DNA of 64,000 nucleotides from an uncultured Candidatus Rokubacteria bacterium. Its GTDB lineage: Bacteria > Methylomirabilota > Methylomirabilia > Rokubacteriales > DASRDR01. Shown one piece after another: positions 6,994-42,261 of this stretch; position 1 is the first letter of the stretch, and the number at the start of each line of letters is the position of its first letter. The stretch is from positions 181,215 through 245,214 of the forward strand of contig CAVPSB010000049.1 of the NCBI GenBank assembly GCA_963708025.1. The letters are read 5' to 3'. Under the pieces are notes generated by a model. It searched no databases and had not been told where the DNA came from. It worked only from the letters and a program-made list of their open reading frames with translations. Both the position numbers and the translations under genes were made by a program.

Positions 6994-8178
6994 ATGGACC
7001 CGACCGTCACCGAGTGGCTCAACCTCGCGCTCCGCTGGTTCCACGTGATCGCCGCCATGGCCTGGATCGGCACCTCGCTCCACTTCATGTGGCTCGACAG
7101 CGCGCTCGAGCCGCCCGCGAAGCCGCGCGAGGGTCTCGAAGGCGAGCTGTGGATGGTCCACAGCGGCGGGTTCTACCTCGTGGAGAAGCTCAAGCCCGGC
7201 CCGAACGCAATGCCGGCAACCCTGCACTGGTTCAAGTGGGAAGCCCTGCTGACCCTGGTCAGCGGTGTCAGCCTGCTCGGCGTCGCCTACTACCTGAGCG
7301 GCGGCGGCGCCCTGGTCGAGTCGGGCGGCGCGCGCCTCGGCGCCGGCACCGGGACCGCCCTCGCCCTCGGGCTCCTCGCCGCCGCCTGGCTCGGCTACGA
7401 CCTCCTCTGGAACTCGCCGGTCGGCCGGCACCCGACGCTCGCCGCGGTCCTGTCGTGCACCGTCCTGGTGGCGATCGCCTTCGGCCTCGGCCGCGTCATG
7501 AGCGGCCGCGCGACCTTCGTCCACGTCGGCGCGATCCTCGGCACCCTGATGACGGCGAATGTCTGGATGCGGATCCTGCCCGCCCAGCGGGAGATGATCG
7601 CGGCGAGCCGGGCGGGCCGGATGCCGGACTTCACACTCGGCGCCCGTGCCAAGGTCCGCTCGGTCCATAACAGCTACATGACATTCCCGGTCGTCATCCT
7701 CATGCTCAGCAACCATTACCCAAGCCTGTACGGACACGAGCTGAACTGGGTCGCGCTCGCCCTCCTCCTCGTGCTGGGGGCCGGGATCCGGCACGCCATG
7801 ATCGCCTGGGACCGCTCGGGGCGCTGGGCGCTGGCGCCGGCGGCGGCCGCGCTGGCGGCGCTGGTCGTCATGACGGCCCCGGCAGCGTCCCACCCCGGGG
7901 CGGCGGCCGGCGAGCGGGTCTCGTTCGCCGCCGTCCGGGTCGTCCTCAACCAGCGCTGCCTGGGCTGCCACTCGGCGTTCCCCTCCGACCGGAGCTTCGG
8001 GCTCGCTCCCGGCGGCGTGAGCTTCGACGTCCCCGACCGCATCCCGGCGTTCGCCGAGCGGATCAAGCTCCGCGCCGTCGTCTCCCAGACGATGCCGCTC
8101 GCGAACAAGACCGGGATGACGACCGACGAGCGCGCGCTCCTCGCGCGCTGGATCGACCAGGGCGCCCGCCTGGAGTAG
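6994..8178 (+). CDS. puuD: Urate hydroxylase PuuD (membrane urate oxidase with C-terminal cytochrome c)
   Basis: WFHVIAAMAWIGTSLHF, LWMVHSGGFY, LHWFKWEA, RSVHNSYMTFPV, MLSNHYP; heme motif CLGCH; MPLANKTGMT; follows a purine transporter. Confidence 0.9.
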   Translation: MDPTVTEWLNLALRWFHVIAAMAWIGTSLHFMWLDSALEPPAKPREGLEGELWMVHSGGFYLVEKLKPGPNAMPATLHWFKWEALLTLVSGVSLLGVAYYLSGGGALVESGGARLGAGTGTALALGLLAAAWLGYDLLWNSPVGRHPTLAAVLSCTVLVAIAFGLGRVMSGRATFVHVGAILGTLMTANVWMRILPAQREMIAASRAGRMPDFTLGARAKVRSVHNSYMTFPVVILMLSNHYPSLYGHELNWVALALLLVLGAGIRHAMIAWDRSGRWALAPAAAALAALVVMTAPAASHPGAAAGERVSFAAVRVVLNQRCLGCHSAFPSDRSFGLAPGGVSFDVPDRIPAFAERIKLRAVVSQTMPLANKTGMTTDERALLARWIDQGARLE

Positions 8179-8207: not shown

Positions 8208-9914
8208 ATGGATCCAATGATCGAGAGTCGGCGTGTCGCTGTCCTGGAGACGGCCTCCCAGCTCATCGGCAGGGCCGTCGCCCTTCTCGGCTGCCTGGTG
8301 CTCCTGGGTTGGGCGCTCGACATACCCACCCTGAGGAACCCGCTGCCAGGCTCGGTCGCCATGAAGGCCAACACGGCGATGGCCTTCGTGCTCTCGGCCG
8401 TGCCCCTGGGGCTATGGCGTGACCGGAGGACGTGGAGGCACGCCATCGCTCGCGGGTGCGCCGCGCTTGTCGTGCTGGTCGGCGTCCTGACTCTCGCCGA
8501 GTACGCGTTCGGCTGGGACCTCCACATCGACGAGTGGCTCTTCCGCGACGCGGTGGGCGCACCGGGAGCCAGCCACCCGGGCCGGATGGCTCCCTTGACG
8601 GCTCTCGGCTTCGTCCTGCTCGGGCTCGCGGAGATGACACTCGACCTCGCTCGAGCGGGCGCCCTCGGCCAATGGCTGGCCATCGCGGTTGGGTATCTCG
8701 GCGTGCTCAACCTGGTGGGCAATGCCTATCGGGCTCAAGGCCTCAGCCACCTCTACAGCCCTGCCTCGGCGTACACGGAAATGCCGCTGCTTACGGCCGG
8801 AGTGTTCGTCGTCGTCAGCGGCGCCGTGCTGTGCGCACGGCCCGACCGTGGAATGATGGCGATCGCGACGAGCCAGACCGCCGGTGGCGTGGTGGCCCGC
8901 CGTCTTCTCCCGGCCGCCCTCGGTCTGCCGCTCGTTCTCGGTTGGCTACGCTTGCTCGGCGAGCGCGCGGGCCTCTGGACCTTTCAGGCGGGGTGGGGAC
9001 TGCTGGCCCTCTCCACGCTGACGGTGTTCGTGGTGATCGTGTGGCGGAGCGCCCGCGTGCTGCACCAGACCGACGGTCAGCGGCAGCAGGTGGAAGCGGC
9101 GCTGCGTCGGGCGCGTGATGATCTGGAGACCCAGGTGCAACAACGAACCCGGGACCTGAGCGAGACCGTTCACGCGCTGCAGGTGGAAGTAGACGAGCGC
9201 CAGCGAGTCGAGCAGGCTCTCCGGGAGAGTGAGCGGCGGTACCGGGACCTCGTCGATTCGAGCCGAGGGCTCATCTGCATCCACGATCTCGATGGCACCG
9301 TGCTGTCCGTGAACCCGGCCGCGGCGCGGCTGCTCGGCTACACGGCGGCGGAGCTGGTCGGGAGAAACTTGCGCGAGATCCTGGCCCCGTCCGTCCAGCC
9401 TCTGTTTCCTCAGTACCTCGAGCGGATCCGCCAGGCGCCGGCGGATGAGGGCGTGATGCGAGTCGTCACCCGGGCCGGCGAGGAGCGTCTCTGGGCCTAC
9501 AGCAACGTGCGGTACGAGGAGCCGGGGCGCCCACCCTATGTCCTGGGCCATGCGCAGGACATCACGGCGCTGAAGCGCGCCGAGCACCTCGCGCGGCAGG
9601 CGGAGGCGCTCCGGTCAGTCGCTCAGCTGGCGAACGCCGCCGCTCATGAGATCAACAACCCGCTCGCGATCGTCGCCGGCCAGCTCGAGATGCTGAAAGG
9701 GCAGAGTTCGGACGATCCGGACACACTCACCAGGATCGAGAAGGCAAGGGCGGCCGTGCTTCGAATCCAGACGATCCTTGGAAGCATGGCGAGAATCACA
9801 CGACTCGAGCGCCTCGACTGGTCTCCGAATCTGCCGCCGCTGCTCGACTTGCGTCGATCGGGAGCCCCAGACGCCGATGGGACTTCGACTCCCGACGATG
9901 CCCCCCAGGCATAA
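8208..9914 (+). CDS. Membrane PAS-domain sensor with HisKA phospho-acceptor but no HATPase domain
   Basis: About 7 N-terminal TM helices, coiled coil (QVQQRTRDL, ALRESERRYR), PAS, H-box AAAHEINNPL; the protein ends ~85 aa after the H-box with no N/G1/G2 boxes. Confidence 0.82.
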   Translation: MDPMIESRRVAVLETASQLIGRAVALLGCLVLLGWALDIPTLRNPLPGSVAMKANTAMAFVLSAVPLGLWRDRRTWRHAIARGCAALVVLVGVLTLAEYAFGWDLHIDEWLFRDAVGAPGASHPGRMAPLTALGFVLLGLAEMTLDLARAGALGQWLAIAVGYLGVLNLVGNAYRAQGLSHLYSPASAYTEMPLLTAGVFVVVSGAVLCARPDRGMMAIATSQTAGGVVARRLLPAALGLPLVLGWLRLLGERAGLWTFQAGWGLLALSTLTVFVVIVWRSARVLHQTDGQRQQVEAALRRARDDLETQVQQRTRDLSETVHALQVEVDERQRVEQALRESERRYRDLVDSSRGLICIHDLDGTVLSVNPAAARLLGYTAAELVGRNLREILAPSVQPLFPQYLERIRQAPADEGVMRVVTRAGEERLWAYSNVRYEEPGRPPYVLGHAQDITALKRAEHLARQAEALRSVAQLANAAAHEINNPLAIVAGQLEMLKGQSSDDPDTLTRIEKARAAVLRIQTILGSMARITRLERLDWSPNLPPLLDLRRSGAPDADGTSTPDDAPQA

Positions 9915-9956
9915 GGCGCTGTGTCGACCTTCGGGATTGCGACGGGTCTGAAGGAG

Positions 9957-11082
9957 CTATGAACGGCCGCCGTGCTGTCGGGGCTGGCGCTTCAAGTCTT
10001 GGAGGTTCGAGGGCGCTAACGGGCCAGCACGCCTCTTGGACTCGGCTCGGGCCCCGGTGACGGAGCAGTTCGAGAGCGTCTCGAATGCCGCCACCATGCG
10101 CGTCAGGACCAACCTCCTGACCGCCGCCCGAGGGTCAGGCCCGGCTCCGCCGCCCACGATCGTCGGGTTGGTGTTGATCTCCCACACCTGAACCCGGCCG
10201 TCCAGGATCGCATAGTCCATGCGCCCATACTGAATCCGGGCCAGGGCGAAGATCTCCCTGAGCGTGTCCTCGTGAGGATTGTGCTCGACGTACTGGGCCT
10301 CCTCGCGCAGCAGCTCCGGATCTTTCAGGTCCGGGCTCTTCTGGACCCAGCACCGGCTGAACTGCAGACTCTTCGGGACGATCCGATCACCCACGATGAA
10401 CGCTCCGTGCTTCCGATAGATTCCCCGTGCGTCCACGGTATCGCAGAACTCCACGACGAGGAGTTCTTCCCGCCGGTCATCCGTGCGCTCGAAGGCGCAG
10501 ATCGCGTCCACGAGCTCGTGCCGGCTCCTGAGCAGTGGCGTGATCGGCCCCCCGTGGTCGCTCTCGAGCCGGAGGAAGACCGGGTATCGTTCCGGCCACC
10601 GCCCTTCGGTCACGCGATAGGCGTTGAACGTGTTGATGCCGCGCTCGTAGAGGTTGCGCAGCAACTCGTAGCGGCGCATCGAGCGGGTCGGGTGGTTCAG
10701 CAGGCGGCGACCCGGATCCGACTCGGCGAGGGTCCGCCACACGAACGCGGCACGCCGGGTCTCCTCGGGCGTGAGACTGTCGACATCGGCAAAGATGTAG
10801 ATGCCGAGCGGGAGCGCCCACCTCGCGCTCGCGTACCGGCCGAGGCGGGCGGCCAGCGACCCGAGTGCCGGGGGTACCTCGCGTCGAACGTGGCGACCAG
10901 CCGTGGCGCGCCAGGGTCCAGTAGGACTCCTTGGCTCTCCTCCACCAGAAATCCTTGGTCATCCGGCCGAGCAGGCGTTCGTAAGCGACGGGGCGCACGT
11001 CGCCGGCTAGGCGCCCTCCCGCCGAGTCGAGCAGCTTCTGGATGCCGGTGAGATGCTCACACTTGGCCAGGAAGTAAGTCAC
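9957..11082 (-). CDS. Hypothetical protein with ATP-grasp-like C-terminus; frameshift near 10900
   Basis: GTG 11082 (VTYFLAKCEH...) joins LPLGIYIFADVDSL...YGRMDYAILDGRVQVWEINTNP; the D-x..E-x-N-x-x-P pattern resembles ATP-grasp metal ligands. Confidence 0.55.
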
Positions 11083-18895: not shown

Positions 18896-20010
18896 CTACG
18901 GCCCGAACGTCACACAGACCGGCGAACCTAGCTCAGCGGCTTGGCCGGCCGGAGTGAGCTTGCCGGAAGCCGCATCCACCTTGAAGACGACGATGTTGCC
19001 CGTCTCCTGGTTTGCCGCGAGCAGCCAGCGGCCGGACAGATCGAGAGCGAAGTTGCGCGGCCCTCGACCCTGGGTGCTGGTGTGTTCGATGAACGTGAGC
19101 CGCCCACCAGCGCCAATCGCGAACACCGCGATGCTGTTGTGGCCTCGGTTCGAGCCGTAGAGGACTTTTCCGGTTGGGTGCACAAAGATCTCCGCGGTCG
19201 TGTTCTGCCCGGCAAAACCTTCCGGGAGCGTCGTGATCTCCTGCACTTGCTCGAGAGCCCCGGTGGTGGCGTCGTGCTCGAAGACTGTGATCGTGTTGAG
19301 CATCTCATTGATCACGTAAGCAAAGCCGTCATGGAAAGCGAGATGGCGCGGGCCCGAACCCGGCCGCACCTTGGCGAATCCTTGGATCGTTCGGAGTGAG
19401 TGTCCCTTTCTGCGCATCGAGCCGGTAGATGAGCACCTGGTCGGTTCCGAGATCGCAAGCGTAGACGAAGCCTCCCTGCGTGTAGATGCTGTGAGCGTGG
19501 GGACGTTCCTGCCGTCTCGCATTGGGGCCGGAACCCGTGTGCTGCACGAACCCGGTTGCCTCGCCGAGGGTGCCGTCGTCGTGAATCGGGAGCGCGGCCA
19601 CGCTACCGCCGCCGTAGTTCGCGACGACCACGTACTTCCCGGCGCCATCGACGACAAGATGACATGCCTCAGCGCCGCGCGACGCTTTCGAATTCAGCGG
19701 CGCGAGTCCATCGTCCGCCCCGATCGCGTAGGCACTCACGCCGCCGCTTCCAGTCTCGTTGACGGAATAGAGGAATCTCCGGTTGGGATGAAGCGCAAGA
19801 AACGTCGGGTTCTTCGTTTCTGCAACCAGGCCGCCGGCCGTCAGAGCGCCGGTTTCGGAGTTCAGGCGAAACAGGTAAATGCCTTTGCTGCCCCCCTTCT
19901 TCGTGTACGTGCCCACGTAAACCCTGAGATCGGCGGCAGAGACAGAAGTGTCAGACGTGGCGAGCACGGCGGGAGTGATGAACGCGACAGAACGGAGCCT
20001 GGCGCGATCA
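18896..20010 (-). CDS. pgl: 6-phosphogluconolactonase-family (7-bladed beta-propeller) lactonase; frameshift near 19385
   Basis: VYVGTYT..GSKGIY, NPTFLALHPN, VVANYGGGSV, RQERPHAHS, CDLGTD | GSGPRHLAFH, LYGSNRGHNSIAVF, PRNFALD. Start uncertain. Confidence 0.85.
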
Positions 20011-20147: not shown

Positions 20148-21434
20148 TCATCCGCCGGCGCCGGTCCGTGCTCGCCGGATGGGTGCGCTCATGGAAAAGC
20201 GCAGCGCATGCGCCGCGTACCCGATCGGCCTCGAGAAGTACCGGAGTGCGCCCGCCGAGCTCGGACGCCCGAGCGCGGCGCCGCGGAGATACTCGCGCGA
20301 GGGGAACAGGAGCCACTGGAGCACGCGCGCCTGCGTTCGCCAGCCACCCGGCATCCTGCGGAGCAGGGCGAGAAGAGGCTGGCGCGACCCGTTGCGCGCG
20401 GCGAAGAGAGCCACGTCGCGCTCCACCGCCGGCGCGCGGTCGAATGCCTCGGCGAGCCGGTCAAGAAAGACGCCGGGGACCCGAGCGCCGAAGGTGTCGC
20501 TCAGATAGCGCAGCATCACGTAGAGCGGGAGCGTGAGTCGCGCGCGCCAGGCGATGTCGAGCACCTCGTGCCAGTCGAGGTCCGACTCCCGGTCGATGAT
20601 GAACCACGCATCGCACACCCAACGCAGGCTCGCCCGACTCGCGGAATACGAGGCATGCCCGCAGACGTGCACCAGGGCGTGCTCAGGCGAGAGTACGCGC
20701 GCCGCCACGCCGGCGATCGTGGTTGCCCGGCTGCGCTCCCATGCCTCGGTCGCGGGAAGGCTGTAGAACGGCAGCGCGAAGAGCTTGGCGTGCAGCTCGA
20801 GCGGAAGTCCCGAGGGATGATCGAGCCGGATGTCCGAGGGGCCGTAGTCTGGCGAGGCCGAGGCCGGCGTGAAACCGGCCGTGCCGAGCGCCCGCACAGC
20901 ACGCTCCAGGTCATCGGGCGCGACGAGGAGGTCGATGTCGTGGCAGTGCCGTTGGGCCGGATGGTCGTACACGATCTCGGCCAGTGCCGCGCCCTTGATC
21001 ACGAGCACGGACACTCCACTCGCGCCCAGCGCCTCGAGCGCGGCGCGGCAGATTGCGCGATAGGCGTCGTTGCGCATCGCCTCGCGGGCGTACGAGGTCG
21101 TGAGGTATGGACGCAGCGCCGGATCCACCTCCGCCGCATTGCGGCGAAGCGCGGTGAAGAGGAGCGGGAGGATCTGCTTCGCTCCCCCCGCGTCGTCCGC
21201 CACGGCGGCCTTCACATCCGCGTGGTAGCGCTGCCACTGGCGCCACGCGTCCCGCCCCGGCTCGGCAGACAGCAGGCAGGCGCGCAGCAGCCACGTCTGG
21301 TCGGCCCGCGGGAGGACGATGCCGAGCGCGCTCGCCAGCCGCGAGCGGGCGAGCGGCGCCCCAGGCACGCGGAACGCGCCCGGGTGGCCAAGGGGACTGC
21401 CCGACGAGTGCTCCAGGGCGCCGCCCACGCTCAT
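20148..21434 (-). CDS. Uncharacterised nucleotidyltransferase (NTP_transf_5 type)
   Basis: LVIKGAALAEIVYDHPAQRHCHDIDLLV, LELHAKL, LSPEHALVHVCGH, LRWVCDAW. Confidence 0.85.
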   Translation of the reverse strand: MSVGGALEHSSGSPLGHPGAFRVPGAPLARSRLASALGIVLPRADQTWLLRACLLSAEPGRDAWRQWQRYHADVKAAVADDAGGAKQILPLLFTALRRNAAEVDPALRPYLTTSYAREAMRNDAYRAICRAALEALGASGVSVLVIKGAALAEIVYDHPAQRHCHDIDLLVAPDDLERAVRALGTAGFTPASASPDYGPSDIRLDHPSGLPLELHAKLFALPFYSLPATEAWERSRATTIAGVAARVLSPEHALVHVCGHASYSASRASLRWVCDAWFIIDRESDLDWHEVLDIAWRARLTLPLYVMLRYLSDTFGARVPGVFLDRLAEAFDRAPAVERDVALFAARNGSRQPLLALLRRMPGGWRTQARVLQWLLFPSREYLRGAALGRPSSAGALRYFSRPIGYAAHALRFSMSAPIRRARTGAGG

Positions 21435-22174
21435 GTCTTCTTCTCGGCGGAGGAATCGGCAAGCGCCTCGGTACGGCGCCGGTCGAGCGACGACTTCAGG
21501 AATGCCAGCCACTCGTCGCGCGCCTGCGCGGTCTTCCGCCGGGTGAGGTTGGTGTGGTGCATGCGGCGGTACGTGAGCACATCGGACAGCACCTCGCTTA
21601 CCGCACCCAGGGCCGCGGCTCGCATGAACCAGTCGGCGGCGTCGGCAAACCAGAGCTGGGGGTCGAACCCTCCGACGCGGTCGAACACCGCGCGCCGCGC
21701 GAGGAGCGTGGTGGTGGCGTAGCCCGGCGGCTGCACGCGCTCGGAGTCCTTGTACTTCTCTTCCTCCTCCTTGAGCTCCGCGATCCAGAAGAGCTTCACG
21801 TACGAGAGACAGTAATCCAGCTCCGGGCGGGCGGCGAAGCGCGCCATCTGTCGCTCCAGCTTTTCCGGATGCCAGAGATCGTCGCCGTCCAAGAAGGCCA
21901 CCATCTCTCCGCGCGCCTCACGCAGCCCGGCGTTTCGCGCGGCCGGCGGCCCCATATTGGACTCCCAATAGTAGCGCACCTGCGTCCCATATTGCTCCAC
22001 CAGCGCCCTGGTACCGTCGGTCGACCCGTCGTCGATGACGACGATCTCGATCGGGCGATACGTCTGCGCGAGGATGCTGTCGATCGCTTCCTGGATGTAG
22101 CGCTCCCCGTTGTACGTGGGCACGATGCAGCTGATGAGAGGATTCATGGCGCCCTCCGAGCCTGTCGCGCTCAT
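21431..22174 (-). CDS. Glycosyltransferase family 2
   Basis: ISCIVPTYNGERYI, VIDDGSTDGT, ARNAGL, AFLDGDDLWHPEKL. Confidence 0.92.
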   Translation of the reverse strand: MSATGSEGAMNPLISCIVPTYNGERYIQEAIDSILAQTYRPIEIVVIDDGSTDGTRALVEQYGTQVRYYWESNMGPPAARNAGLREARGEMVAFLDGDDLWHPEKLERQMARFAARPELDYCLSYVKLFWIAELKEEEEKYKDSERVQPPGYATTTLLARRAVFDRVGGFDPQLWFADAADWFMRAAALGAVSEVLSDVLTYRRMHHTNLTRRKTAQARDEWLAFLKSSLDRRRTEALADSSAEKKT

Positions 22175-23310
22175 GCCAAGCTCCGTTGCGCGCGCCCGCG
22201 CTCGGCGAGCCCGCGGATCAGCTCGTCGTACGCGTCCACGTGCTGCTCCCAGCCAAAGGCAGCTAGGGCTCGCTGCCGAGCGGCCCTGCCCATCGCCGCG
22301 GCGCACCGCGGATCGTCCAGCAGCCTCGCGATGGCTCGTAAGAGGGCGCCGATGTCTTCGGGCTCGATGAGCAGTCCCGTCTCGCCGTCGACGACCACCT
22401 CGGGGAGCCCACCCACGCGTGCGGCGATGACCGGGCGCTCGAGTTGCCCCGCCTGCAGCACGGCGAGGCCGAACCCCTCCTCCACGCGTGAGGGCATCAG
22501 CACCATGGTGGACTGCGCAATCACCGCCGGGATCTGCGCGGGGTTCACCCACCCCAGGAAGTCCACGCGATCGGCGATGCCGAGGGCGTGCGCCTGACGC
22601 TCCAGCCTCGCGCGCTCCTCGCCGTCGCCGGCGATGGTGAGGCGAAGCAGCGGATAGCGCGGCGCGATCCGGGCCAGCGCCGACAGCGCGAGGTCGAAGC
22701 CCTTCTCCTTCGTGGCCAGGCGTCCGACGCAGAGTAGGCGTGGCGCCTCGAGCGGCGGAGGCGTGGGCGCGTGCGCCGTGGCCTCCAGTCCGTTGAGGAT
22801 CACGGAGCAGCGGTCAGCGATCTCGGGCGCCTGCCGGCGTATGCGCTCGAGCGTCGCGGCGGAGCACGCCGTCACCCATTCGGCATCGCGCAGCAGGCGC
22901 CGCAGCACGGAGTTGGGGGTGAGCACGTGGTCGGGGAAGGCGCCATGCAATGTGCACAGCGTGGCCGCCGGGTGCGCGTCGCGTGTCTCGAGATGCAGAA
23001 CGGTATCGAAGGTCGCATGGTAAACGTGTACGACCTCCGGCGCAAAGCCGCGCTTGAGCTGCGCCACCGTCCGCCGCAGCTCGAACCAGCGCAGCGCGTC
23101 GCGGCTCTCCGCCACCTGCAGGAAATCGAAGCGGCGCACCGGAACGCCCTCGAAGCTGGACTCGGCGGCGAGCTCCAGCTCGTCGCGTCGGGTGACCACC
23201 AGAATCTGGTGCCCCCGGTCGCGCAGCGCGGTGACCAGGCGGGCGCCGAGCACCTCGACCCCACCGATGTTCGGCCAGAACGCGTCACACCAGAAAAGAA
23301 TGCGGCTCAC
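22171..23310 (-). CDS. Glycosyltransferase family 4
   Basis: GTG start overlapping upstream stop; FWPNIGGVEV, LCVGRLATKEKGFD, PSRVEEGFGL, VGGLPEVVVDGETG. Confidence 0.92.
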   Translation of the reverse strand: MSRILFWCDAFWPNIGGVEVLGARLVTALRDRGHQILVVTRRDELELAAESSFEGVPVRRFDFLQVAESRDALRWFELRRTVAQLKRGFAPEVVHVYHATFDTVLHLETRDAHPAATLCTLHGAFPDHVLTPNSVLRRLLRDAEWVTACSAATLERIRRQAPEIADRCSVILNGLEATAHAPTPPPLEAPRLLCVGRLATKEKGFDLALSALARIAPRYPLLRLTIAGDGEERARLERQAHALGIADRVDFLGWVNPAQIPAVIAQSTMVLMPSRVEEGFGLAVLQAGQLERPVIAARVGGLPEVVVDGETGLLIEPEDIGALLRAIARLLDDPRCAAAMGRAARQRALAAFGWEQHVDAYDELIRGLAERGRAQRSLA

Positions 23311-23580
23311 GGCGCATCGACCGCGAGCGAGTCGAGGAGCTCGTTCACGCGGGCGGGGATGGTCTCGAGGTCGCTCCCCATCTCGAGCCGATGTGATGGC
23401 ACCCGCTCCACGAGGCACACGAGCGCGTCGAAGCCTCGTCGTGCCGGCATGAACGGGAGCATGAGCAGCGAGCTGGGCACCAGCGTGCGGAGCGCTTCGG
23501 CGCGCGATACGGGGCTCAGGTGTGCGCCCGCCGCGGCCGACGATCCTGGGAAGGACCAACGCTCGAACCGGCACCATGCT
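23307..23580 (-). pseudogene. C-terminal remnant of an HPr-kinase-like protein (paralog of 43431..44510)
   Basis: VPVRALVLPRI | SRAEALRTLVPSSLLMLP...LVERVPSHRLEMGSDL aligns by eye with VPIRVLVLPRL...SKGEALLALGPSSLLQIP...LVERVPVYSLELGRDL; the P-loop part is absent. Confidence 0.78.
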
Positions 23581-23676
23581 CTCATGGCGACCAAGCGTGT
23601 CCGCCGCTGCGCGCTGCGTGCGTATGCGATTCGTGCCCGTCCGCCGAGTGACGAGACTGCACGCCGCGCTTCGCCA

Positions 23677-24135
23677 CTAGAGGCCCGACCGCGGTGCCGG
23701 CGGTGCCGACTCCTGCCATGGGACCTCCTTGAGGCCCGGCATCGGCGGGTCGAGCGCGAGGAGGTCGGCCATGTCGCGGTAGCTGTTGAGGCGCGGCTCC
23801 TGGTACGGCTGCTTCGCGCCAGGCGACGCGCCGGTCGTGGGCGCCGCGGCGTCGCCGACGGCCGGCGTCACCAGCTTCTCGGCGATGAGCTCGTCGAGGA
23901 GTCGTTGCGCGTCCTCGAGCGCGCGCTGGCCAGTGACCTCGTACCGCGCGACGACGCCGTCCACAATCTCCTCGAAGGGCCGTCCCTCGGCGACCAGCGA
24001 CCAGATGAATCCACCCACCTTGTCCATGCTGTAGTACGTGCCGTTGGACAGATTGATGATGACGGCTTCGCCGTCGATCACCTTCGCGGCGCACTCCTCC
24101 TCGTTCGGTACCAGGCGGCTACGCGGTGACAGCAT
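23677..24135 (-). CDS. PqqD/RRE-family protein with fused leader-like C-terminal tail
   Basis: RBS AGGAG; KVIDGEAVIINLSNGTYYSMDKVGGFIWSL...YEV...EDAQRLLDELIAEKLV (PqqD fold), then PYQEPRLNSYRDMADLLALDPPMPGLKEVPW. Confidence 0.88.
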   Translation of the reverse strand: MLSPRSRLVPNEEECAAKVIDGEAVIINLSNGTYYSMDKVGGFIWSLVAEGRPFEEIVDGVVARYEVTGQRALEDAQRLLDELIAEKLVTPAVGDAAAPTTGASPGAKQPYQEPRLNSYRDMADLLALDPPMPGLKEVPWQESAPPAPRSGL

Positions 24136-25249
24136 GTGCATTCTCCTTGGCGACCTGCTGGTACAGAATGTCGAATTGGGAGACGTGACGCTCGATCGTG
24201 AATTCCTCCAGCGCGCGCTGGCGGCCCACGATGCCCATCCGCGCTGCCACGTCGGGATTCTCCAACAAGTACAGTATCGCGTCGGCGAGTGCACCGGGGT
24301 CTTCCTTCTCGACCAGCAGCCCGGTATCCCCGTGCACCACCACCTCCGGCACCCCACCAACGCGACTCGCGATCACGGGACGCGCCATCTGGGCGCCCTG
24401 CAGTGCCACGAGTCCGAATGCTTCCTTCCACCGGGAGGGCTGCAGCACCATCGTCGAGGCGTTGATGAGCTGCGGAACGTCTGCGGGGGCAACCCATCCC
24501 AGAAAGTCCACGGCATAGGCGATCCCGAGTTCCGCCGCCTGCCGCTCGAGCGCGGCTCGCGCCACTCCATCACCGGCCAGCACCAACCGCGCGCGGTGGA
24601 ACCTCGCGCGCACTTTCGCGAATGCGGTGAGCGCGGTGTCGAACCCCTTCTCTTCCACCAGACGCCCGATGGCCAGAATGCGCGGCGGATCCAGTGGGAG
24701 CGCGCTTGGGCGAAGAGCGGGCACGTCCAGCCCGTTGTGCACGACGGATGAGCGAGGCTGGATCTCGGGCACGAGCTGCCGCGCCTCGTCGAGCACCGCC
24801 ATGGAGGGGGCCGTGACCCATGCCGCATCGCGCAACGCGCGGCCGAAGAGCGAGTCGCCCATCGCGGCGGCGGCGGGCACGAAGACAGGAAGAGTGACGA
24901 GCAGCGGTGCCGGCCACGCGTCGGCGGTCTGATAGTGGAAGAGGAAGCTCGGGTCGGTGATGTTGAGGTGCACGAGATCGGGGCGGAGCTCTCGCTTGAG
25001 CGCGGCCAGTCCCCGCCGTGCCCGCACGATCTCCTCGAGGTCTCTAGTCGCGATCGCGGTCTGGAAGCGAAAGCGATGCACCGGTACTCCCTCGTGCTCC
25101 GCGAGATCCGGTAGATCGAGATGACCATGCGAGGTGACGACGCACGGCTCGTGGCCGCAGCGACGCAGCCCGCGGAGCAGCTGCGGCGACCGTACCTCGA
25201 CGCCGCCGATGTACGGGGCGTACAGTGCCGTCCAGTAGATCACGCGCAT
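24119..25249 (-). CDS. Glycosyltransferase family 4
   Basis: MRVIYWTALYAPYIGGVEV, IGRLVEEKGFD, PSRWKEAFGLVAL, VGGVPEVVVHGDTG. Confidence 0.92.
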   Translation of the reverse strand: MRVIYWTALYAPYIGGVEVRSPQLLRGLRRCGHEPCVVTSHGHLDLPDLAEHEGVPVHRFRFQTAIATRDLEEIVRARRGLAALKRELRPDLVHLNITDPSFLFHYQTADAWPAPLLVTLPVFVPAAAAMGDSLFGRALRDAAWVTAPSMAVLDEARQLVPEIQPRSSVVHNGLDVPALRPSALPLDPPRILAIGRLVEEKGFDTALTAFAKVRARFHRARLVLAGDGVARAALERQAAELGIAYAVDFLGWVAPADVPQLINASTMVLQPSRWKEAFGLVALQGAQMARPVIASRVGGVPEVVVHGDTGLLVEKEDPGALADAILYLLENPDVAARMGIVGRQRALEEFTIERHVSQFDILYQQVAKENAHAVTA

Positions 25250-25446
25250 GGAGATCCTCCCGCTGCGTCGCTGTCCATGTTCACCACTCTCCATTCGCTG
25301 GACACGGAGCAGAACCTCCCTGATCAGGAGGATCACCGCCGCCGACGCGGCTGGGCGGTGCCGGCACGAACCGTGCGAGGAGGCGCTTCTCCCATCGGAA
25401 GAGGTGGCCGATGAACTGTCTCGCCGGATTTCTCATGGTCGGGTCG

Positions 25447-26721
25447 TCAGGGCGACCAGAATCGCCACTCCGCCCGGCCCCGCCGCGTCGTGGACACAGC
25501 CAAGCCGGCCAGGTAGAGCCCGCACTGATAGGCGGCCAGCTTGGCGAACTCGATTGGCGCGGACAGGCGGGACCGACGCGAGACCGAGACACGCAACTCC
25601 TCCCAGAGCCAGCGCAGGGGGTCCTGGCTGCCCGTCACCAACTGGCGCAGATATCTGGCCCGTTCCCGTCCGCTCGGTTGGATCCACAGGGCGAGGAGGC
25701 GTCCAGCCGCGGCTTTCTGAAAGCGCTGGTCGAGGAGAGACGGCTCCGGTCTGAGGACCCCCAGGTGGAAGCAGGTCAAGAGATCTGGCCGGATGCGCCT
25801 GAGCACGTGATGCGGAACATCGGTCTCGAAAATCCTCCGAGTTAGCTGCAGCGACAGGGCCAGCCCGTTCAGGAGCCCGCCCCGACGCGCGCTGTCTTCG
25901 ACCAGGTCCCACCGAAACCGTGGGTTCGCCCTGATGATCCGGTCGATGTCCACGAATCTGACGAGGCGATCGAAGCCGCCCTGGGTGTTCTGGCTGACCA
26001 CGTGGAGCAACTGGTGCTCTGGACAGGGAAGGCGGAAGTCCGGTTTGCCGGAGTGGAACTCGGCCCAGGCGAGAAAGTCCTCGGTGACGAGCCGCATCGC
26101 GGAACCCGGGGCGGTCAGCCCGAAGTGCACCTCCACGATGAAGCCACGAGAGTGTCTCACGCGTACATGAAAATGGTGGTCCATGTAACCCTGGAGCTGT
26201 GCCTCGCTGTACCGATTCTCGTATCCGGAGTCGAGGAGGGCCGAGACACCCCTCTCCAGCTGGTCGGCAGGCAGGAGGAGGTCCAGGTCGCCGAACCCCC
26301 GCTCCACGGGCTCGCCATAGAGAGTCGTACACAGCGCTCCCCCCTTGAGCATGACGGGATCGAGCCCGCGGCGGTGGAGAACGCTGAGCACGCGATCGCG
26401 CTCGACCAGCCACAGGCCGGCGCGGCGGCGCAGGCGCGCGAGGGGGTGGGCCAGCTCGTCGCGCGTCTCGGAGGACAGCATCTCTTGAACGGCCGGACGC
26501 TCCAGCGCCACGAGGACCAGTCCCAGCACGCCATGACGCCGTGCGAAATCCAGGAAACGCTCGCGATCCCCTGACCGAGCGAGGCCGCGGAGGCCAGCTG
26601 CGTTGACACGGGGCTCCGGGACGTGCCGGCACAGCTCGATCACCAGGGACTGGATGGGATCGGCCAGGCCCCAGGGGGGCCGTCTCCAGCGGGCGGTGAA
26701 TCCTCTCCTCATGTGCCACAT
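25447..26721 (-). CDS. Uncharacterised nucleotidyltransferase (NTP_transf_5 type)
   Basis: VMLKGGALCTTLYGEPVERGFGDLDLLL, VEVHFGL, PEHQLLHV, FVDIDRII. Start uncertain. Confidence 0.85.
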   Translation of the reverse strand: MWHMRRGFTARWRRPPWGLADPIQSLVIELCRHVPEPRVNAAGLRGLARSGDRERFLDFARRHGVLGLVLVALERPAVQEMLSSETRDELAHPLARLRRRAGLWLVERDRVLSVLHRRGLDPVMLKGGALCTTLYGEPVERGFGDLDLLLPADQLERGVSALLDSGYENRYSEAQLQGYMDHHFHVRVRHSRGFIVEVHFGLTAPGSAMRLVTEDFLAWAEFHSGKPDFRLPCPEHQLLHVVSQNTQGGFDRLVRFVDIDRIIRANPRFRWDLVEDSARRGGLLNGLALSLQLTRRIFETDVPHHVLRRIRPDLLTCFHLGVLRPEPSLLDQRFQKAAAGRLLALWIQPSGRERARYLRQLVTGSQDPLRWLWEELRVSVSRRSRLSAPIEFAKLAAYQCGLYLAGLAVSTTRRGRAEWRFWSP

Positions 26722-27226: not shown

Positions 27227-27655
27227 CTAGAGCTCGTCCACGAAGTCGTGGCTCGCACGCGCGAAGGTCCGTGATCCCACGGCGAGGAGAGCTCCGGATA
27301 GCACCGCGAGTGCCAGAAGAGAAGCACCATCGGGGAACTCGCCGCGGACGAGGATCGCACGATAGGCGTCGAGCAGGTAGAGCATCGGGTTCAGATGGTA
27401 CACGGCTTCATGCCGCGCCGGCACGCGACTCGCCTCGTAGAAGACGGGCGTGAGGAACAGGAGAAGCTGGAGGAACCCGGCCAGGATGTATTGAGTGTCG
27501 CGAAACGTCACATAGAGAGTCGCGGCGAGGTAGGCCAGGCCCAACGTCAGGAAAAACTGGAGCGCGATCGGAACGGGCAGCATGAGCATCGCCGGCGTCA
27601 TGGATCGGTCGTCCAGAATGAAGACGAGCAACAGAATGGGAAGCGCCAGCAGGAG
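27227..27655 (-). pseudogene. C-terminal half of a Wzm-like ABC-2 polysaccharide export permease
   Basis: LLLALPILL...LGLAYLAATLYVTFRDTQY...FLTPVFY...LNPMLYLLDAYRAIL...FVDEL*; no N-terminus. Confidence 0.8.
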
Positions 27656-27669
27656 TTCCGGATCTGCGC

Positions 27670-28575
27670 GTAGGCTCGGGTGTCTGGGAGATCAGGTGAG
27701 GAGCGTAAACGAGCCGCGTGGGTCGGACGCCCTCCGGCGCCAGCGCCACAACGGCTTCCCGCCCGACCGAAGCGGCGTCGAGGACGTCAAACATGGCCGC
27801 GGAGGGCAGGAGCGCACGCCGGGACACGCTGGTGTCGATCGCGCCGGGAATCCGCCTGCCGACGATGACCGCCTGCTGACCGAGAAAGAGGGCCGAGTCG
27901 CGAGCGCCCGATCCGCTGAGCCGCGAATCACCTTCTTCCACCAGCTTGACGGGGGCCGAACATTGAGCCCCGGCAGCGGCGGCGGCGAGGCAGTCCCTAA
28001 CCGACCCACCGTCCGCGAAGGGTCGTCCGAGCAGTCCTTCCCGAACCGCGGCCCGGCAGAGCTCGAAGCCGCTGCCCCGGGTGAGCGCAGCCCGGAGCGG
28101 CTGGGCGCCGATGACTCCCTGCTCGGCGGGCAGACGGACAGCTCCGATCGCGACTCCGCCCACCATGGCCACGACGTTGAGCTCCGAGCCGGCGACGTGG
28201 ACGCAGGGAAGCTCTCCGGTGACCTCGATCGCCACCCAGTCAGTGTCGACCTTGCGCGTCGGCGCGGGCTCGTCGGTGGCGTTCGGGTCGTAGAAACGCT
28301 CCAGCGGCCAGTGTCAACGGTGCCACAGTTCCTGCAGGAATACCGTCCACCCCACCCGCGCGTGGATGTCCCGCCGTAACATGTCTTGGCTGTCCGGAGC
28401 CGAGGGTGTGAGCCGCGTCGATCCCCTCCAGAGTGATCGACCCTGCGCGTCCTCGTGGACCTCGAGCTCGGAATAGACGGTCCGCTGAAAGAAGCGCTCC
28501 AGGATCTGCCAGCCGAACTCCGCCGCAATCGAGTCGGCCAGAACATACCCGAGCACCGCACCGTCAACGACCGGG
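27670..28575 (-). pseudogene. Internal fragment of a large glycosyltransferase-associated protein, with premature TGA
   Basis: Continuous coding-like frame FGWQILERFFQRTVY...GWTVFLQELWHR*HWPLERFYD...GFELCRAAVREGLLGRP; no start or end. Confidence 0.5.
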
Positions 28576-28584
28576 AGCTCGCTT

Positions 28585-28695
28585 CGTACTCGGGGTAGGT
28601 CTGGCCCACGACGGAGGCGAGGGTCTCGCCGATGTACGGGGCCACGTTGTAGGCAGGGATGACGATGCTGACGACGGGACGGCGTGAGACCCCAG
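28585..28695 (-). pseudogene. N-terminal stub of a GT2 glycosyltransferase
   Basis: PVVSIVIPAYNVAPYIGETLASVVGQTYPEYEA, then homology stops abruptly. Confidence 0.75.
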
Positions 28696-29350
28696 TGAAC
28701 ACGAAGCCTACCCTCTTTGCGCTTTCCGAATACCCGGTGGACAAAGGTTCGCGCACAGGCGACCGGCGCGATCGGATTCCCTGGGCGACCGCGCGGGGAG
28801 GTCAGCGCGCGAGCGCCCGCATCTGGGTGAGGAGCAAGGAGCGTGCCCAGTGGCAACATCGCGCCGTTGCCCCAACACTGCGAGGGGGGCACTGTAAGAC
28901 ATCGATCGGCGGGCGTCAGCGCGCTGATGTGCAGAGCTCGTAACAATTAGGGGTAAACCCTCCATAGCAAGCGCAGCCGCCTGCGTTCAGCTCGACACGA
29001 TCACGCGACGTCGGTCGGAGGTTCAACGACGTCTCGCGCCCCGGAGATGCGGGGGTCGGCGCAGTTGTCACACACCACGGCGAGGTCGAGCTTAGATGGA
29101 TTGATACGGCTTGATACGGCGGCTGGCGCATGGGGCCCGAGTGGGCTATGCTGGCGGCGCCTGGGCGAGGGATCCCTCGCAGCGAATGGGGCGTTCGAGC
29201 GGCCTGCGATCCTGCATTGTTGACTCGTTCTCTAGGCGAGCAGACACCTTCCGTCCGTCTCGACGACGATCCGTGGCCGGGCGGGCTCGGGAGTGCGCTG
29301 GGCCCATGAGCCGCGGCCGGCGCCGGTAACCACTCGCCGAGGGAGCGCCG

Positions 29351-38866: not shown

Positions 38867-39741
38867 ATGAGGCTCTGGGGCAGGGTGGCGACCGGCCTGC
38901 TGCTGGCCTTCGCCGTGGTCTTCACGGCGATCGCCGTCGTCGCGCCCACGATGCGGCGGGAGGCCATCGTTGCGGTCGTCATCGCCACCGCGGCCGCCCT
39001 CCTGGGAGTCCCCGCGCTGGTGCGCTTCTTCGGCTCTTTTACCGGCGACGAGGAGGTGCTGAGGAACGGGACCCCGGGCGCCGCCACCATCACGTTGCTG
39101 CAGCCGACCCGGTGGCGCTACAACCGAACCTACCCCATCGTGAGGTTCGGCCTCAGCGTGGAGGCTGCCGGCGTCTACCCGGTCGAGGTCAAGCAGGCGG
39201 TCGATCCCGATCTGCTGCCGCGACTCGCCCCCGGGGTGGTGGTGGCCGTACGGGTGGACCGGCTGGACCGCAAGAAGGTCGTCATCGACTGGCGTGAGCC
39301 GGTTCGTACGGCCACGGGTGAGACCGTGGACCAGAGCGTGGCCGGGGCCGCGCAAACGCCGACAGCAAAACGGTCCCTCTGGCCTTTCCTCCGCTGGGCG
39401 TGCCTGCTGTGCTCCAGAAGACCTACTCGCCCGGCACCAGCTCGACCAGCGGAAGCCGAGGCTCCCCGGCCCGGCGCTCCGTGAGTTACCGATTCACGAC
39501 GAAGGAGGGACGGACGCTCGAGGGCCGATCCGACGTCCTTCCCGGGACCTGGGGAACACTCAAGGAAGGCGATTCCATCGTCGTCGAGTACCTGCCGGAG
39601 TCGCCCGACACCAACCGGGTCCCGGACCAACGGGCCAGGTCCACAATCTGGGGAATCATGGCGCTGGTGCTCCTGGTGGCCAGCGCGGTTCTCTTCGTCG
39701 TGGGGTGGCGAAAACGACGAGCCGCAAGCGTAGCGTGCTAG
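38867..39741 (+). CDS. Membrane protein with DUF3592-like domain(s); frame break near 39400
   Basis: Two N-terminal TMs, then GTPGAATITLLQPT...VRVDRLDRKKVVIDW; second part VSYRFTTKEGRTLEG...IVVEYLPESPDTNRV plus TM. Confidence 0.55.
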
Positions 39742-40156
39742 GTGGTCGTCGCCATCATGGGCACGCCGACCGGGGCGGCAGATCAGGTCGAGCCGCTGGA
39801 GAACGGCACACCGGTGACGGCGGTCCCGTTCCGAGTCGGCGCTCCCGCCCGATCTACGAGGTAATCGACCCAGGGGCACGCCGTCTAGTGCCGTTCCAAC
39901 TTGCTCCAGCCAATGCTTTCGAGGAATGCGGCAAGTCCGTGCTTCAAGAATCGCTTGCCCATTTTGGCTCATGCAGTTGGAATGGCACTAGCAGCCAGCG
40001 TCCCGCTCAGCCACCGGGGGCCTTGACTCCTCGCGGGAAACAGTGCTTGATGGCTCGACTCCGGCATCAAGGTCTCCGGCGATGTGCAAAGATTTTTCCT
40101 CCCGGGACAGATGCTGCGGCGACGAGCCGTACCGTGCGAAGGCCCCAGAGGAAACG

Positions 40157-40975
40157 ATGACCAGTCCGCAACACAGAGTGCTCACGTCGCCTCCGACCGC
40201 GGACCTGCGCGCGGTGATAAGCTGCATCGTCCCCGTGTTCAATGGTGAACGCTATCTAGACGAGACGCTGGACAGCATCCTCCAGCAGACTCACAGCCCA
40301 CTGGACATCATCGTCGCCGACGACGGCTCAACTGACGGAACAGCGGCTGTCGTTGCCGCCTACGGCGAGCGGGTCACGTATCTGTGGCAACCGAATGCTG
40401 GTGAGACAGCCGCGCGCAACCTCGGGCTTCGCGCCGCGCGTGGCGATTTCGTCGCCTTCCTGGATGCGGACGACCTCTGGCATCCAGACAAGCTCGCGCG
40501 GCAAGTCGCCCGATTCCAGGATCGCCCGGGGCTCGATCTCTGCTTTACTCACTTCGAGAACTTCTGGAGTCCAGAATGTACGGCCGAAGCAGAATACTAC
40601 CGGAAGCGCGCATTTTCCCCAGCGTCATCCGCGTACTCGATCTGTACCTTGCTGGCCCGCCGCGCCGCTTTTCAGAAGTTCGGCCATTTCGTCGACGACG
40701 GTCGTCGGGGGCCCCAGAACCTCATCTGGCTCTTTCACGCTGCTGAACACGGCGCCCGCATCGAGATGTTGACCGACCTCCTGATGTATCGCCGCCTTCA
40801 CCGCGAGAACCTCTCCGGGAAGCGGAGCACTGCTCACGACCTCGACACCTTCTTCCCGATCCTGAAGGCGTGGCGCGACTACCAACGGCGAGTGCGCGAA
40901 GAGACGGGGGTCGCCGCCCCGTTTGGGGCGGGCTTACCAATGACCGAAACCAGGCCGGGAGGTGTCGCATGCTGA
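40157..40975 (+). CDS. Glycosyltransferase family 2
   Basis: ISCIVPVFNGERYL, VADDGSTDGT, ARNLGL, FLDADDLWHPDKL. Confidence 0.92.
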   Translation: MTSPQHRVLTSPPTADLRAVISCIVPVFNGERYLDETLDSILQQTHSPLDIIVADDGSTDGTAAVVAAYGERVTYLWQPNAGETAARNLGLRAARGDFVAFLDADDLWHPDKLARQVARFQDRPGLDLCFTHFENFWSPECTAEAEYYRKRAFSPASSAYSICTLLARRAAFQKFGHFVDDGRRGPQNLIWLFHAAEHGARIEMLTDLLMYRRLHRENLSGKRSTAHDLDTFFPILKAWRDYQRRVREETGVAAPFGAGLPMTETRPGGVAC

Positions 40976-41418: not shown

Positions 41419-41451
41419 CCCAACGGCCAGGTGACGAGAGAATAGTCTGTC

Positions 41452-42192: not shown

Positions 42193-42261
42193 GCGAGCCA
42201 CCATTGACCTATGGGCCCGTCGCCACCCGTGCTCGAGGCGGGGGAGGCAATCGGCTGAACG

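Follow-up and report, generated by a model that had tools for sequence, protein, structure and literature searches.

A lasso-B1-type RiPP recognition element with a putative leader of its own, encoded twice among glycosyltransferase genes of a Candidatus Rokubacteria bacterium

A 64,000-nucleotide stretch of contig CAVPSB010000049.1 (assembly GCA_963708025.1, positions 181,215 to 245,214, forward strand) from an uncultured Candidatus Rokubacteria bacterium, referred to below as the window, encodes two small proteins that each consist of a RiPP recognition element (RRE; RiPP, ribosomally made, post-translationally modified peptide), a linker and a conserved C-terminal tail. The best reading of these proteins, held with modest confidence, is that of an RRE with a naturally tethered cis-leader, the distal half of which is presented to neighbouring enzymes. 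An RRE-leader pair and the kinase- and nucleotidyltransferase-like enzymes encoded nearby are of a known kind. The natural fusion of an RRE with its own leader, in a gene cassette devoid of a precursor gene, appears to be a new variant.

The two proteins, copy 1 and copy 2 (Table 1), are paralogs with 65 of 150 residues identical (43 %; BLASTP E 1e-39). Each harbours a single Pfam domain, PqqD (PF05402), with 53.9 bits in copy 1 and 58.2 bits in copy 2 against a gathering cutoff of 23.4 (E 2.3e-14 and 1.1e-15, respectively). The top NCBIfam model for both copies is lasso_PqqD_Bac, a lasso-peptide PqqD chaperone, with scores under the cutoff of 80 (55.5 bits in copy 1). The 31-residue tail (residues 110-140) lies at 23716-23808 on the minus strand in copy 1 and at 41296-41388 on the plus strand in copy 2. 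The tail peptides quoted in the first-pass annotation agree letter for letter with the translations of the two open reading frames (ORFs); the interval that it gave for copy 1, 23677-24135, does contain the tail but spans the entire copy 1 ORF with its stop codon. A manual count from the translations gave 20 of 31 identical tail residues. Identity between the copies differs by region, with 0.43 for the RRE (residues 12-90), 0.20 for the linker (93-107), 0.61 for the tail (108-140), 0.80 for residues 121-135 and 0.25 for the C-terminal extension.

The first half of the tail (Y111-x-x-P114-x-L116) matches the recognition sequence of lasso and LPP leaders. YxxPxL occupies positions -17 to -12 of lasso leaders (PMC10368454). 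According to PMC13381572, [Y/W]xxPx[L/V/I/F/A] is the motif by which lasso and LPP leaders bind the RRE, and in crystal structures the three residues following this anchor extend the RRE sheet. In AlphaFold2 models made without templates, residues 111-120 reach a mean predicted local distance difference test score (pLDDT) of 94 (copy 1) or 97 (copy 2), flanked by lower values in the linker (67-84) and in the distal part (57-68). DSSP assigned a strand to residues 117-119 in both models, which are the three residues following the anchor. Covariation analysis of 189 sequences, from which those more than 85 % identical had been removed and with no correction for phylogeny, showed that the two strongest covarying pairs of the whole protein connect the RRE with the tail: 39-112 (z 7.3) and 66-108 (z 6.2). 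Both pairs are charge-complementary. Sequences with K39 have E or D at 112 in 58 of 61 cases, those with G39 have E there in 15 of 60, and R or K at position 108 accompanies D or E at position 66 in 99 of 124. In the PbaB1 crystal structure, E70/D68 contacts K-18 of PbaA, three residues before the aromatic anchor (PMC13381572). In the family, E70 of PbaB1 corresponds to position 66, and position 108 is likewise found three residues before the anchor. The linker is unconserved in sequence and constrained in length, the distance from L88 to Y111 being 21-30 residues (median 23) in 122 sequences and 21-28 residues (median 23) in 44 loci.

A separate ORF bearing a tail or leader was not found: profiles of the tail and of leaders matched just the two tails in the window, and in all 78 genomic loci of the family (described below) they matched only PqqD ORFs, the sole exception for the tail profile being a truncated extra piece in locus L003. 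Neither was a conserved family of small ORFs found among 12,022 ORFs. The sole conserved peptide in the window and the 78 loci that fits the RRE cleft is the protein's own tail. Docking as such of the first half of the tail in the RRE cleft is judged quite probable on the in silico evidence. The proposal of the first-pass annotation of a cis-leader for the RRE is supported, for the first half of the tail, by the identity of the leader motif, the retained pocket residues, the AlphaFold confidence, the charge-complementary covariation and the tether of conserved length.

Both AlphaFold models display the winged helix-turn-helix fold of PF05402, with strands 7-10, 15-20, 23-28 and 33-37, helices 39-49, 54-64 and 69-85, and strand 89-91; the template modelling score (TM-score) normalised to TbiB1 is 0.88-0.90. 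The models contain short N- and C-terminal 'lock' strands, as described for LppB and PbaB1. A Foldseek search with the copy 1 model gave TbiB1 (5v1v_A) as best match (E 5e-6, 34 % identity), and the top six matches are TbiB1 and TfuB1 leader complexes. A profile search against the PDB gave TbiB1 (E 9e-16), PbaB1 (9x90_B, 1.3e-14), LppB (9x8z_B, 1.7e-8) and TfuB1 (7e-6). As judged from sequence, the RRE is of the lasso-B1 kind and nearer to lasso B1 than to LppB. PbaB1 residues were mapped via the profile-PDB alignment, in which the SEQRES number is the number in the paper plus 18, as verified on 12 residues. The pocket and anchor residues reported for PbaB1 in PMC13381572 map to Y35, M37, V40, I44, V61, Y65, V67, D75, L79, L83 and L88. 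Among these, Y35, Y65, V67, D75, L79, L83 and L88 are conserved at 93-100 % in an alignment of 122 sequences, D75 replacing the residue that hydrogen-bonds the leader Tyr/Trp in this mapping. Since the pocket residues are conserved, the cleft is intact and under selection.

This 122-row alignment contains both paralogs and the best 120 (141-161 amino acids, query coverage 88-100 %) of 867 homologs that a word-seeded search had retrieved at E <= 1e-3 among 1029 candidates. Residues Y111, P114, L116, D121, L125, A127, D129, P130, P131 and P133 are present in 122 of 122 sequences, M122 and L128 are conserved at 99 %, Y119, L126 and W140 at 98 %, and D124 and L135 at 94 %, while linker positions 93-107 carry just 0.7-1.8 bits each. 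A scan of one genome per species gave 159 relatives, the best 80 of which yielded the 78 loci (L001 etc.). These loci span Gemmatimonadota, several proteobacterial classes, Acidobacteriota, Bacteroidota/Ignavibacteriales, Planctomycetota, Chloroflexota, Nitrospirota, Methylomirabilota, Abditibacteriota, Actinomycetota and others. In alignment A3, made of 44 proteins from many phyla translated from genome loci, 12 columns are invariant, 7 of which are in the tail (P114, A127, L128, D129, P130, P131, P133). The consensus of 194 tails, chosen with a pattern that fixes positions 0, 3, 5, 8 and 10, is Y-x-x-P-x-L-x-x-[Y186/F8]-[R]-D-M-x-D-L-L-A-L-D-P-P-x-P-x-L-x-x-x-x-W. Conservation of the tail across phyla exceeds chance in these alignments. 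The notion of the first-pass annotation that the tail is a selected functional module is well founded, as the tail is near-invariant, far beyond chance, in hundreds of homologs from many phyla; its observation that the tail is better conserved than the Ala/Pro-rich linker holds family-wide as well as between the paralogs (20 % for the linker versus 61-80 % for the tail). Its 'invariant Tyr' was correct for Y111 in 122 of 122 sequences and nearly so for Y119 (98 %), but at position 119 F is found in 8 and Y in 186 of the 194 sequences, with F or H in subfamilies and H in some of the loci, and position 111 is W in L078.

A phmmer search with the tail only (48 residues) against 1.84 billion representatives gave 142 matches, all with the motif at the C-terminal end. 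Forty of these 142 are shorter than 105 amino acids, and many start within the last RRE helix or the linker. They look like N-terminally cut fragments or chimeras, judging from where they begin, although a genuine stand-alone form is possible. P0231, a 370-amino-acid repeat protein among the matches, was rejected as a low-complexity chance match. Some metagenomic members are unusual: the tail of P0163 contains two tandem YxxPxL motifs, P0223 carries a partial motif N-terminally in addition to its C-terminal tail, and in P0125 and P0213 a glycosyltransferase fragment is joined straight to the tail, with no RRE. These four may be artefacts of assembly or gene calling.

No stretch of the protein is better conserved than the distal segment, [DE]-M-x-D-L-L-A-L-D-P-P-x-P-x-L, which neither model packs on the RRE with confidence. 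Sequence matches of the distal segment or tail in the PDB were at chance level (E >= 1), and the ESM Atlas held no usable match for the tail. The corresponding portion of LPP leaders was proposed to bind modifying enzymes by the authors of that work (PMC13381572), and by analogy a role of the distal motif as an enzyme docking site is plausible. Candidate partners are encoded close by. Of the loci, 52 extend at least 5 kb to either side of the RRE-tail gene; within 6 kb of this gene, a family 2 glycosyltransferase (GT2) is present in 52 of them, an HprK-like kinase in 46, a nucleotidyltransferase (NTase) in 45, a family 4 glycosyltransferase (GT4) in 37 and a radical S-adenosylmethionine (SAM) protein in 1. 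A counterpart of the 246-amino-acid GT2 of the window (41-70 % identity) is found in 71 of 78 loci, the 7 misses being short contigs. The GT2 is the only universal neighbour and, as a candidate partner, therefore ranks equal with the kinase and the NTase. In L014 the cassette is compact, with NTase, GT4, RRE-tail, kinase, GT4, GT2 and NTase genes and nothing else recognisable. The radical SAM protein was rejected as a core partner because it is found in just 1 of these 52 loci.

A mechanism of three steps can be proposed. A lasso-B1-type RRE would carry its own recognition sequence, a flexible tether of about 23 residues leading to a C-terminal peptide that resembles lasso/LPP leaders. In the first step, which is well supported in silico, K/R-x-x-Y-x-x-P-x-L would fold back into the hydrophobic RRE cleft, and the next three residues would add a strand to the RRE sheet, as free leaders do in TbiB1, TfuB1, PbaB1 and LppB. 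The RRE would thus be permanently loaded. The filled cleft probably stabilises it, because LppB and some lasso RREs are insoluble without leader (PMC13381572). In the second step, we infer, [DE]-M-x-D-L-L-A-L-D-P-P-x-P-x-L would be held out as the enzyme-facing part of the 'leader', where it could recruit or activate the GT2 of about 240 amino acids and usually also the HprK-like kinase, the NTase of family PF14907 and the GT4s. The kinase and NTase are related to the K and N enzymes that tailor phosphorylated lasso peptides and LPPs. That the RRE-leader unit presents its distal segment to adjacent enzymes in this manner, as suggested by analogy, is a serious possibility that falls somewhat short of probable. 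In the third step, the RRE-tail protein may be a fixed adaptor or a pseudo-substrate of a kinase/NTase/glycosyltransferase cassette that has no precursor, and the acceptor of the cassette may be another protein, a glycan or lipid or, in some lineages, the variable C-terminus of the RRE-tail protein itself. When lasso peptides and LPPs are tailored, (poly)phospho-Ser is made by the kinase, after which the NTase adds hexoses to the phosphate (PMC8498205, PMC13381572); by analogy, the product of the cassette likely bears phosphate and sugar.

Several points weigh against this proposal. The case for cis docking is drawn from pLDDT, DSSP and covariation, and covariation fits cis and trans docking alike; it may also be partly due to subfamily structure, and AlphaFold may be reproducing learned complexes of lasso B1 with leaders. 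In a set collected by a search with the tail, 8 of the 15 positions in residues 121-135 reach 95 % conservation or more, and the mean pairwise identity of this stretch is 0.77, compared with 0.35 for the RRE; tail conservation is inflated by this choice of sequences, a bias that affects the 122-row and 44-protein sets less. Replacement of Y, P and L of BsfA by Ala did not abolish phosphorylation (PMC10368454), and therefore RRE docking is not always required by such kinases. Two full loci, L003 and L007, have kept the tail and have neither kinase nor NTase within 10 kb, and four further full loci have no kinase within 6 kb. The partner of the distal motif, if there is any, is more likely the GT2 or something unseen than the kinase or NTase.

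The foremost alternative is that the protein is an RRE-fused precursor and its own substrate, with the tail as leader plus core and the enzymes decorating the tail or the Ser-rich extension with phosphate and sugar, release being optional. The failure to find a separate precursor in the window or the 78 loci, minimal cassettes such as that of L014, and the action of the kinase and NTase homologs of lasso and LPP pathways on an RRE-bound precursor, phospho-Ser first and hexoses next (PMC8498205, PMC13381572), all agree with this. So does the extension after W140, which is variable, rich in S, E, P and G, has a median length of 9 residues and contains Ser or Thr in 158 of 194 sequences. However, no Ser or Thr is conserved in the tail in the 122-row, 194-sequence or 44-protein sets, copy 2 has none beyond W140, and some lineages lack W140 and the extension altogether and end soon after LDPPxPxL. 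Nor can the kinase generally be taken to use a C-terminal Ser, as it does in paeninodin, since the last residue is variable and Ser in only 29 of 194 sequences. Peptidase, cyclase and exporter were not found in 72 ORFs of five loci, an ATP-binding cassette (ABC) exporter family being present in 20 of 78 loci, and a core as invariant as this one differs from the cores of antibiotic RiPPs. The reading as a self-substrate is accordingly rather unlikely in our estimate. Of 'cis-leader plus core', as the first-pass annotation had it, the leader is retained and the core is disfavoured, given these deficits in Ser/Thr and the lack of a nearby peptidase or cyclase.

A particular form of this alternative concerns Asp129. 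In the LPP motif YxxPxVLxHQxIxFETxxS, His is found at +8 and the phospho-acceptor Ser3 at +18 from the anchor Tyr (PMC13381572), while the tail described here has Y, F or H at +8 and Asp129 at +18 from Y111, the Asp being present in 194 of 194 sequences. The corresponding offset in BsfA is +19 (PMC10368454). The shared +18 offset of D129 and Ser3 of LppA is an observation of a coincidence, short of proof; it argues against a Tyr acceptor, and Asp129 may be a mimic of phospho-Ser or a true acceptor. It is distinctly unlikely that the RRE-tail protein is a self-presenting substrate with Asp129 or the surrounding segment in the active site of the enzyme, at the offset of the phospho-Ser presented by LppA and BsfA. 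LppK rejects Thr or Tyr in place of Ser (PMC13381572), so that Asp would need new chemistry. If true, phosphorylation, nucleotidylation or glycosylation would proceed by a carboxylate chemistry not known for HprK-like kinases or PF14907 enzymes, and would yield either a (phospho)glycan linked to protein or peptide, or a conserved small molecule derived from a peptide. The Tyr residues, also put forward earlier as possible acceptors, are not supported: Y111 is the RRE anchor (W in one homolog), and Tyr119 was rejected because F or H replaces it in whole subfamilies with intact cassettes.

Alternatively, the tail could be an autoinhibitory plug that fills the cleft until the true precursor, encoded elsewhere, displaces it and so gates the enzymes. 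The docking evidence applies equally to a plug, and tethered pseudo-ligands are a common regulatory device. A candidate competitor peptide was absent from the window and the 78 loci searched, however, and a plug leaves the top conservation of the non-docking distal motif unexplained, which makes it very unlikely. Docking might also occur in trans, the tail of one molecule binding the RRE of another or of the paralog so as to form dimers or chains, arranged head to tail, on which the enzymes would be scaffolded. This fits the covariation and the pocket conservation equally well, and there are two paralogs in this genome and three in L003. Nevertheless, the segment docks in cis, at high confidence, in each of the two monomer models, the narrow range of tether lengths suits a cis loop, and most loci have a single copy, more than one being found in 1 of 78; docking in trans is held to be highly improbable. 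That the similarity of the tails is mere shared ancestry of two recent paralogs is practically ruled out, since the linker has diverged to 20 % identity while the tail is at 61-80 %, and since the motif is invariant in Gemmatimonadota, Proteobacteria, Acidobacteriota, Bacteroidota, Planctomycetota, Abditibacteriota and others, as the family-wide alignments and the tail profile in 78 of 78 loci show.

The RRE-tail proteins are encoded in the window at two loci (Table 1). Locus A, on the minus strand, has the order NTase, GT4, RRE-tail, HprK-like remnant, GT4, GT2, NTase, and locus B, on the plus strand, GT2, RRE-tail, GT2, GT4, HprK-like kinase, radical SAM/SPASM. A tblastn search over the window revealed one full kinase, in locus B, one remnant and two NTases. 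The locus B kinase reaches 44.9 bits with the TIGR04352 (HprK_rel_A) equivalog model, below the cutoff of 200, and its Walker A residues G182, G187 and K188 as well as H167 and D206 are invariant in 44 homologs. The syntenic locus L001, with a 72 % identical protein, has an intact kinase at the place where locus A lacks about 770 bp. The two loci are complementary: A has two NTases and no intact kinase, whereas the only full kinase and the radical SAM/SPASM gene are in B, which has no NTase. Perhaps both loci are needed for the system to work, or locus A may be in decay.

Table 1 Features of the two RRE-tail loci (positions in the window)
Feature	Positions	Strand	Remarks
Copy 1 (P0001), complete ORF	23677-24135	-	152 amino acids/codons + stop
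Copy 1 RRE/PqqD domain, residues 1-92	23860-24135	-	PF05402; AlphaFold pLDDT 86-97
Copy 1 linker, residues 93-107	23815-23859	-	Ala/Pro/Ser/Gly-rich tether; pLDDT blocks 67 and 72
Copy 1 leader-like segment, residues 108-120, K-Q-P-Y-Q-E-P-R-L-N-S-Y-R	23776-23814	-	[Y/W]xxPx[L/V] + beta strand
Copy 1 distal motif, residues 121-140, D-M-A-D-L-L-A-L-D-P-P-M-P-G-L-K-E-V-P-W	23716-23775	-	pLDDT 57-65; short helix 122-126
Copy 1 variable acidic/Ser/Pro-rich extension, residues 141-152, + stop codon	23677-23715	-	Translation
Copy 2 (P0002), complete ORF	40969-41418	+	149 codons
Copy 2 RRE/PqqD domain, residues 1-91	40969-41241	+	PF05402; AlphaFold pLDDT 95-98
Copy 2 linker, residues 92-107	41242-41289	+	20 % identity to copy 1 linker; pLDDT blocks 77 and 84
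Copy 2 leader-like segment, residues 108-120	41290-41328	+	pLDDT 97 for 111-120; strand 117-119
Copy 2 distal motif 121-140, extension 141-149 (without Ser/Thr), stop codon	41329-41418	+	pLDDT 62-68
NTase PF14907, locus A, upstream copy	25447-26721	-	NTP_transf_5 E 5.5e-43
GT4, locus A, directly upstream of copy 1	24119-25336	-	Glycos_transf_1 E 3e-39
HprK-like gene remnant (3' end, ~95 codons), locus A	23307-23594	-	51 % identical to HprK_B residues 330-386
GT4, locus A	22171-23310 (start approximate; long ORF 22171-23577)	-	Glycos_transf_1 E 9e-41; domain starts near ORF residue 94
GT2, locus A	21431-22180 (start approximate)	-	Glycos_transf_2 E 1e-35
NTase PF14907, locus A, downstream copy	20148-21512	-	NTP_transf_5 E 3.8e-46; 72 % identity to L001 counterpart
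GT2, locus B, upstream of copy 2	40043-40975 (longest ORF; true start probably later)	+	Glycos_transf_2 E 1e-34
GT2 (~246 amino acids), locus B, universal companion of the family	41452-42192	+	Glycos_transf_2 E 2e-32
GT4, locus B	42262-43428	+	Glycos_transf_1 E 6e-38
HprK-like P-loop kinase, locus B, 360 amino acids from ATG overlapping GT4 stop	43428-44510	+	Hpr_kinase_C E 3e-4
Radical SAM/SPASM protein, locus B	44510-45403	+	SPASM E 2e-10; Radical_SAM E 1e-7

Counterparts of the radical SAM/SPASM protein with 73-75 % identity occur only in L003, L004, L007 and L011 of the 78 loci, with a partial one in L068. In those loci this identity tops that of the other cassette proteins, and the gene looks like a recently shared accessory module by this comparison. 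The deltaproteobacterial locus L003 harbours three RRE-tail genes (1875-2417, 7349-7858, 9896-10444) and a truncated fourth tail (7009-7338), with many GT2 and GT4 genes and radical SAM/SPASM; its 18.6 kb contain no kinase or NTase. An epimerase family is found in 19 of 78 loci. A reading as a defence system was rejected, as PADLOC models run on 10 cassette proteins gave only weak generic radical-SAM similarity to pVip. Three GT4s (22171-23577, 24119-25336, 42262-43428) match PF20706, 'GT4 in conflict systems', with 43-77 bits (cutoff 26), which probably reflects generic GT4 similarity. The third-codon-position G+C is 0.73-0.86 in 8208-28379 and 39400-45403 versus 0.93-0.99 in most flanking genes, which suggests that loci A and B lie within horizontally acquired islands. 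Gene fragments were found near the loci in ORFs 27230-27691 (-), 27695-28801 (-), 18896-19657 (-) and 51107-51493 (+), with partial matches to the C-terminal half of an ABC-2 permease, the first ~29 positions of the GT2 profile, positions 178-344 of a lactonase model and the last 47 positions of a molybdopterin-binding domain model.

RREs are a common handle for finding and engineering RiPP pathways and are assumed to bind a separate precursor. Here, a natural RRE seems to have its own recognition sequence, across many phyla, beside glycosyltransferase and usually kinase and NTase genes, and precursor, peptidase and cyclase were not found in the ORFs searched. A sizeable class of mined 'PqqD family' genes is thus probably no marker of ordinary RiPP clusters. 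The poorly understood kinase and NTase enzymes of lasso and LPP pathways would gain a widespread relative, possibly acting on a non-peptide or protein acceptor. For structural work the family may offer an RRE that is soluble and self-loaded, and what the invariant DLLALDPPxP and Asp129 do makes a sharp test case.

Of the known systems, lasso B1 proteins (TbiB1, TfuB1, PbaB1) with their leaders share the fold, the sequence family (34-36 % identity to TbiB1), the pocket residues and the [Y/W]xxPxL anchor followed by a sheet-extending strand. They differ in that the ligand is here on the same polypeptide and does not vary in sequence past the anchor, in contrast to the variable lasso leaders and cores. 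A lasso precursor has a YxxPxL leader, Thr at -2 (rarely Ile/Val), an N-terminal Gly, Cys, Ser or Ala in the core and Asp or Glu at core position 7-9. The first-pass annotation was right that the tail has neither the penultimate Thr nor the Gly/Cys1 of lasso precursors; L is found at the offset equivalent to Thr(-2) (Y+15), and a variable core is absent. Among the 56 ORFs of the window and 72 ORFs of five loci from five phyla there was no Pfam match to a lasso cyclase (asparagine-synthetase-like C protein), a B2 (transglutaminase-like) protease or a signal peptidase, and no separate precursor was found in the window or the 78 loci. Lacking cyclase, B2 and precursor, this is therefore not a lasso cluster.

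The LPP system (LppA/B/K/N/S/D; PMC13381572) resembles the present one in combining an RRE, an HprK-like kinase and an uncharacterised NTP transferase, without a cyclase and among glycosyltransferases. It also shares the YxxPx[V/L] anchor, an aromatic residue or His at +8 (H in LPP, Y/F/H here) and a conserved +18 residue (Ser3 in LPP, Asp129 here). A kinase (locus B) and NTP transferases (two PF14907 in locus A) do occur beside a discrete RRE, as judged by protein family. In contrast to LPP, no match to an SpI-like (SipW-type) peptidase was found in the window or the five loci and no separate precursor of 35-200 amino acids in the window or the 78 loci, an MsbA-like exporter is present in only 20 of 78 loci, and the RRE resembles lasso B1 more than LppB. 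In a 2026 account (PMC13381572), LPPs were said to be confined to Bacillota, whereas the family reported here is found in Gram-negative and other phyla. As the SpI peptidase and a separate precursor with Ser3 are missing, the loci are not LPP clusters. The paeninodin, pseudomycoidin and Bsf systems (PMC8498205, PMC10368454) likewise have K (HPr-kinase homolog) and N (nucleotidyltransferase) beside a PqqD-type B1, which in Bsf accelerates phosphorylation (PMC10368454). In these phosphorylated or phosphoglycosylated lasso peptides a lasso precursor is tailored and cyclase and protease are present, in contrast to the present loci with only tailoring-type genes and several GT2/GT4.

The HPr-rel-A system of NCBIfam (TIGR04352 kinase, PqqD-family chaperone) and SynChlorMet (ScmC/ScmD/ScmE) also combine HprK-like and PqqD-like proteins, with radical SAM/SPASM as an option. 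Scores of the window proteins are below the cutoffs for the kinase (44.9 versus 200), ScmD (28.4 versus 100) and ScmC (23.9 versus 125), and the PqqD model of the HPr-rel-A system gave no match at E up to 0.01. To our knowledge, the function of both systems is also unknown. The literature terms 'HprK-related kinase', 'HPr-rel-A', TIGR04352 and TIGR04353 returned no paper. In a survey of RREs, 21 % of PF05402 proteins are larger than a discrete RRE without other annotation, and its text contains neither 'intramolecular' nor 'in cis' nor 'self-' (PMC12710340). The text of PMC13381572 mentions neither a natural RRE-leader fusion nor the phyla seen here. A description of a natural RRE-leader fusion was not found in the literature searched, and subscription journals and supplements may hold one.

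The closest parallel in idea comes from the laboratory. With engineered fusions of leaders to enzymes, such as a cyanobactin heterocyclase and a lanthipeptide synthetase, RiPP enzymes act without free leader. The principle would be the same, in that a tethered leader keeps the recognition site filled; those fusions are laboratory constructs, whereas the proteins described here are natural and widespread, so that the 'tethered leader' trick of engineers appears to be already used in nature.

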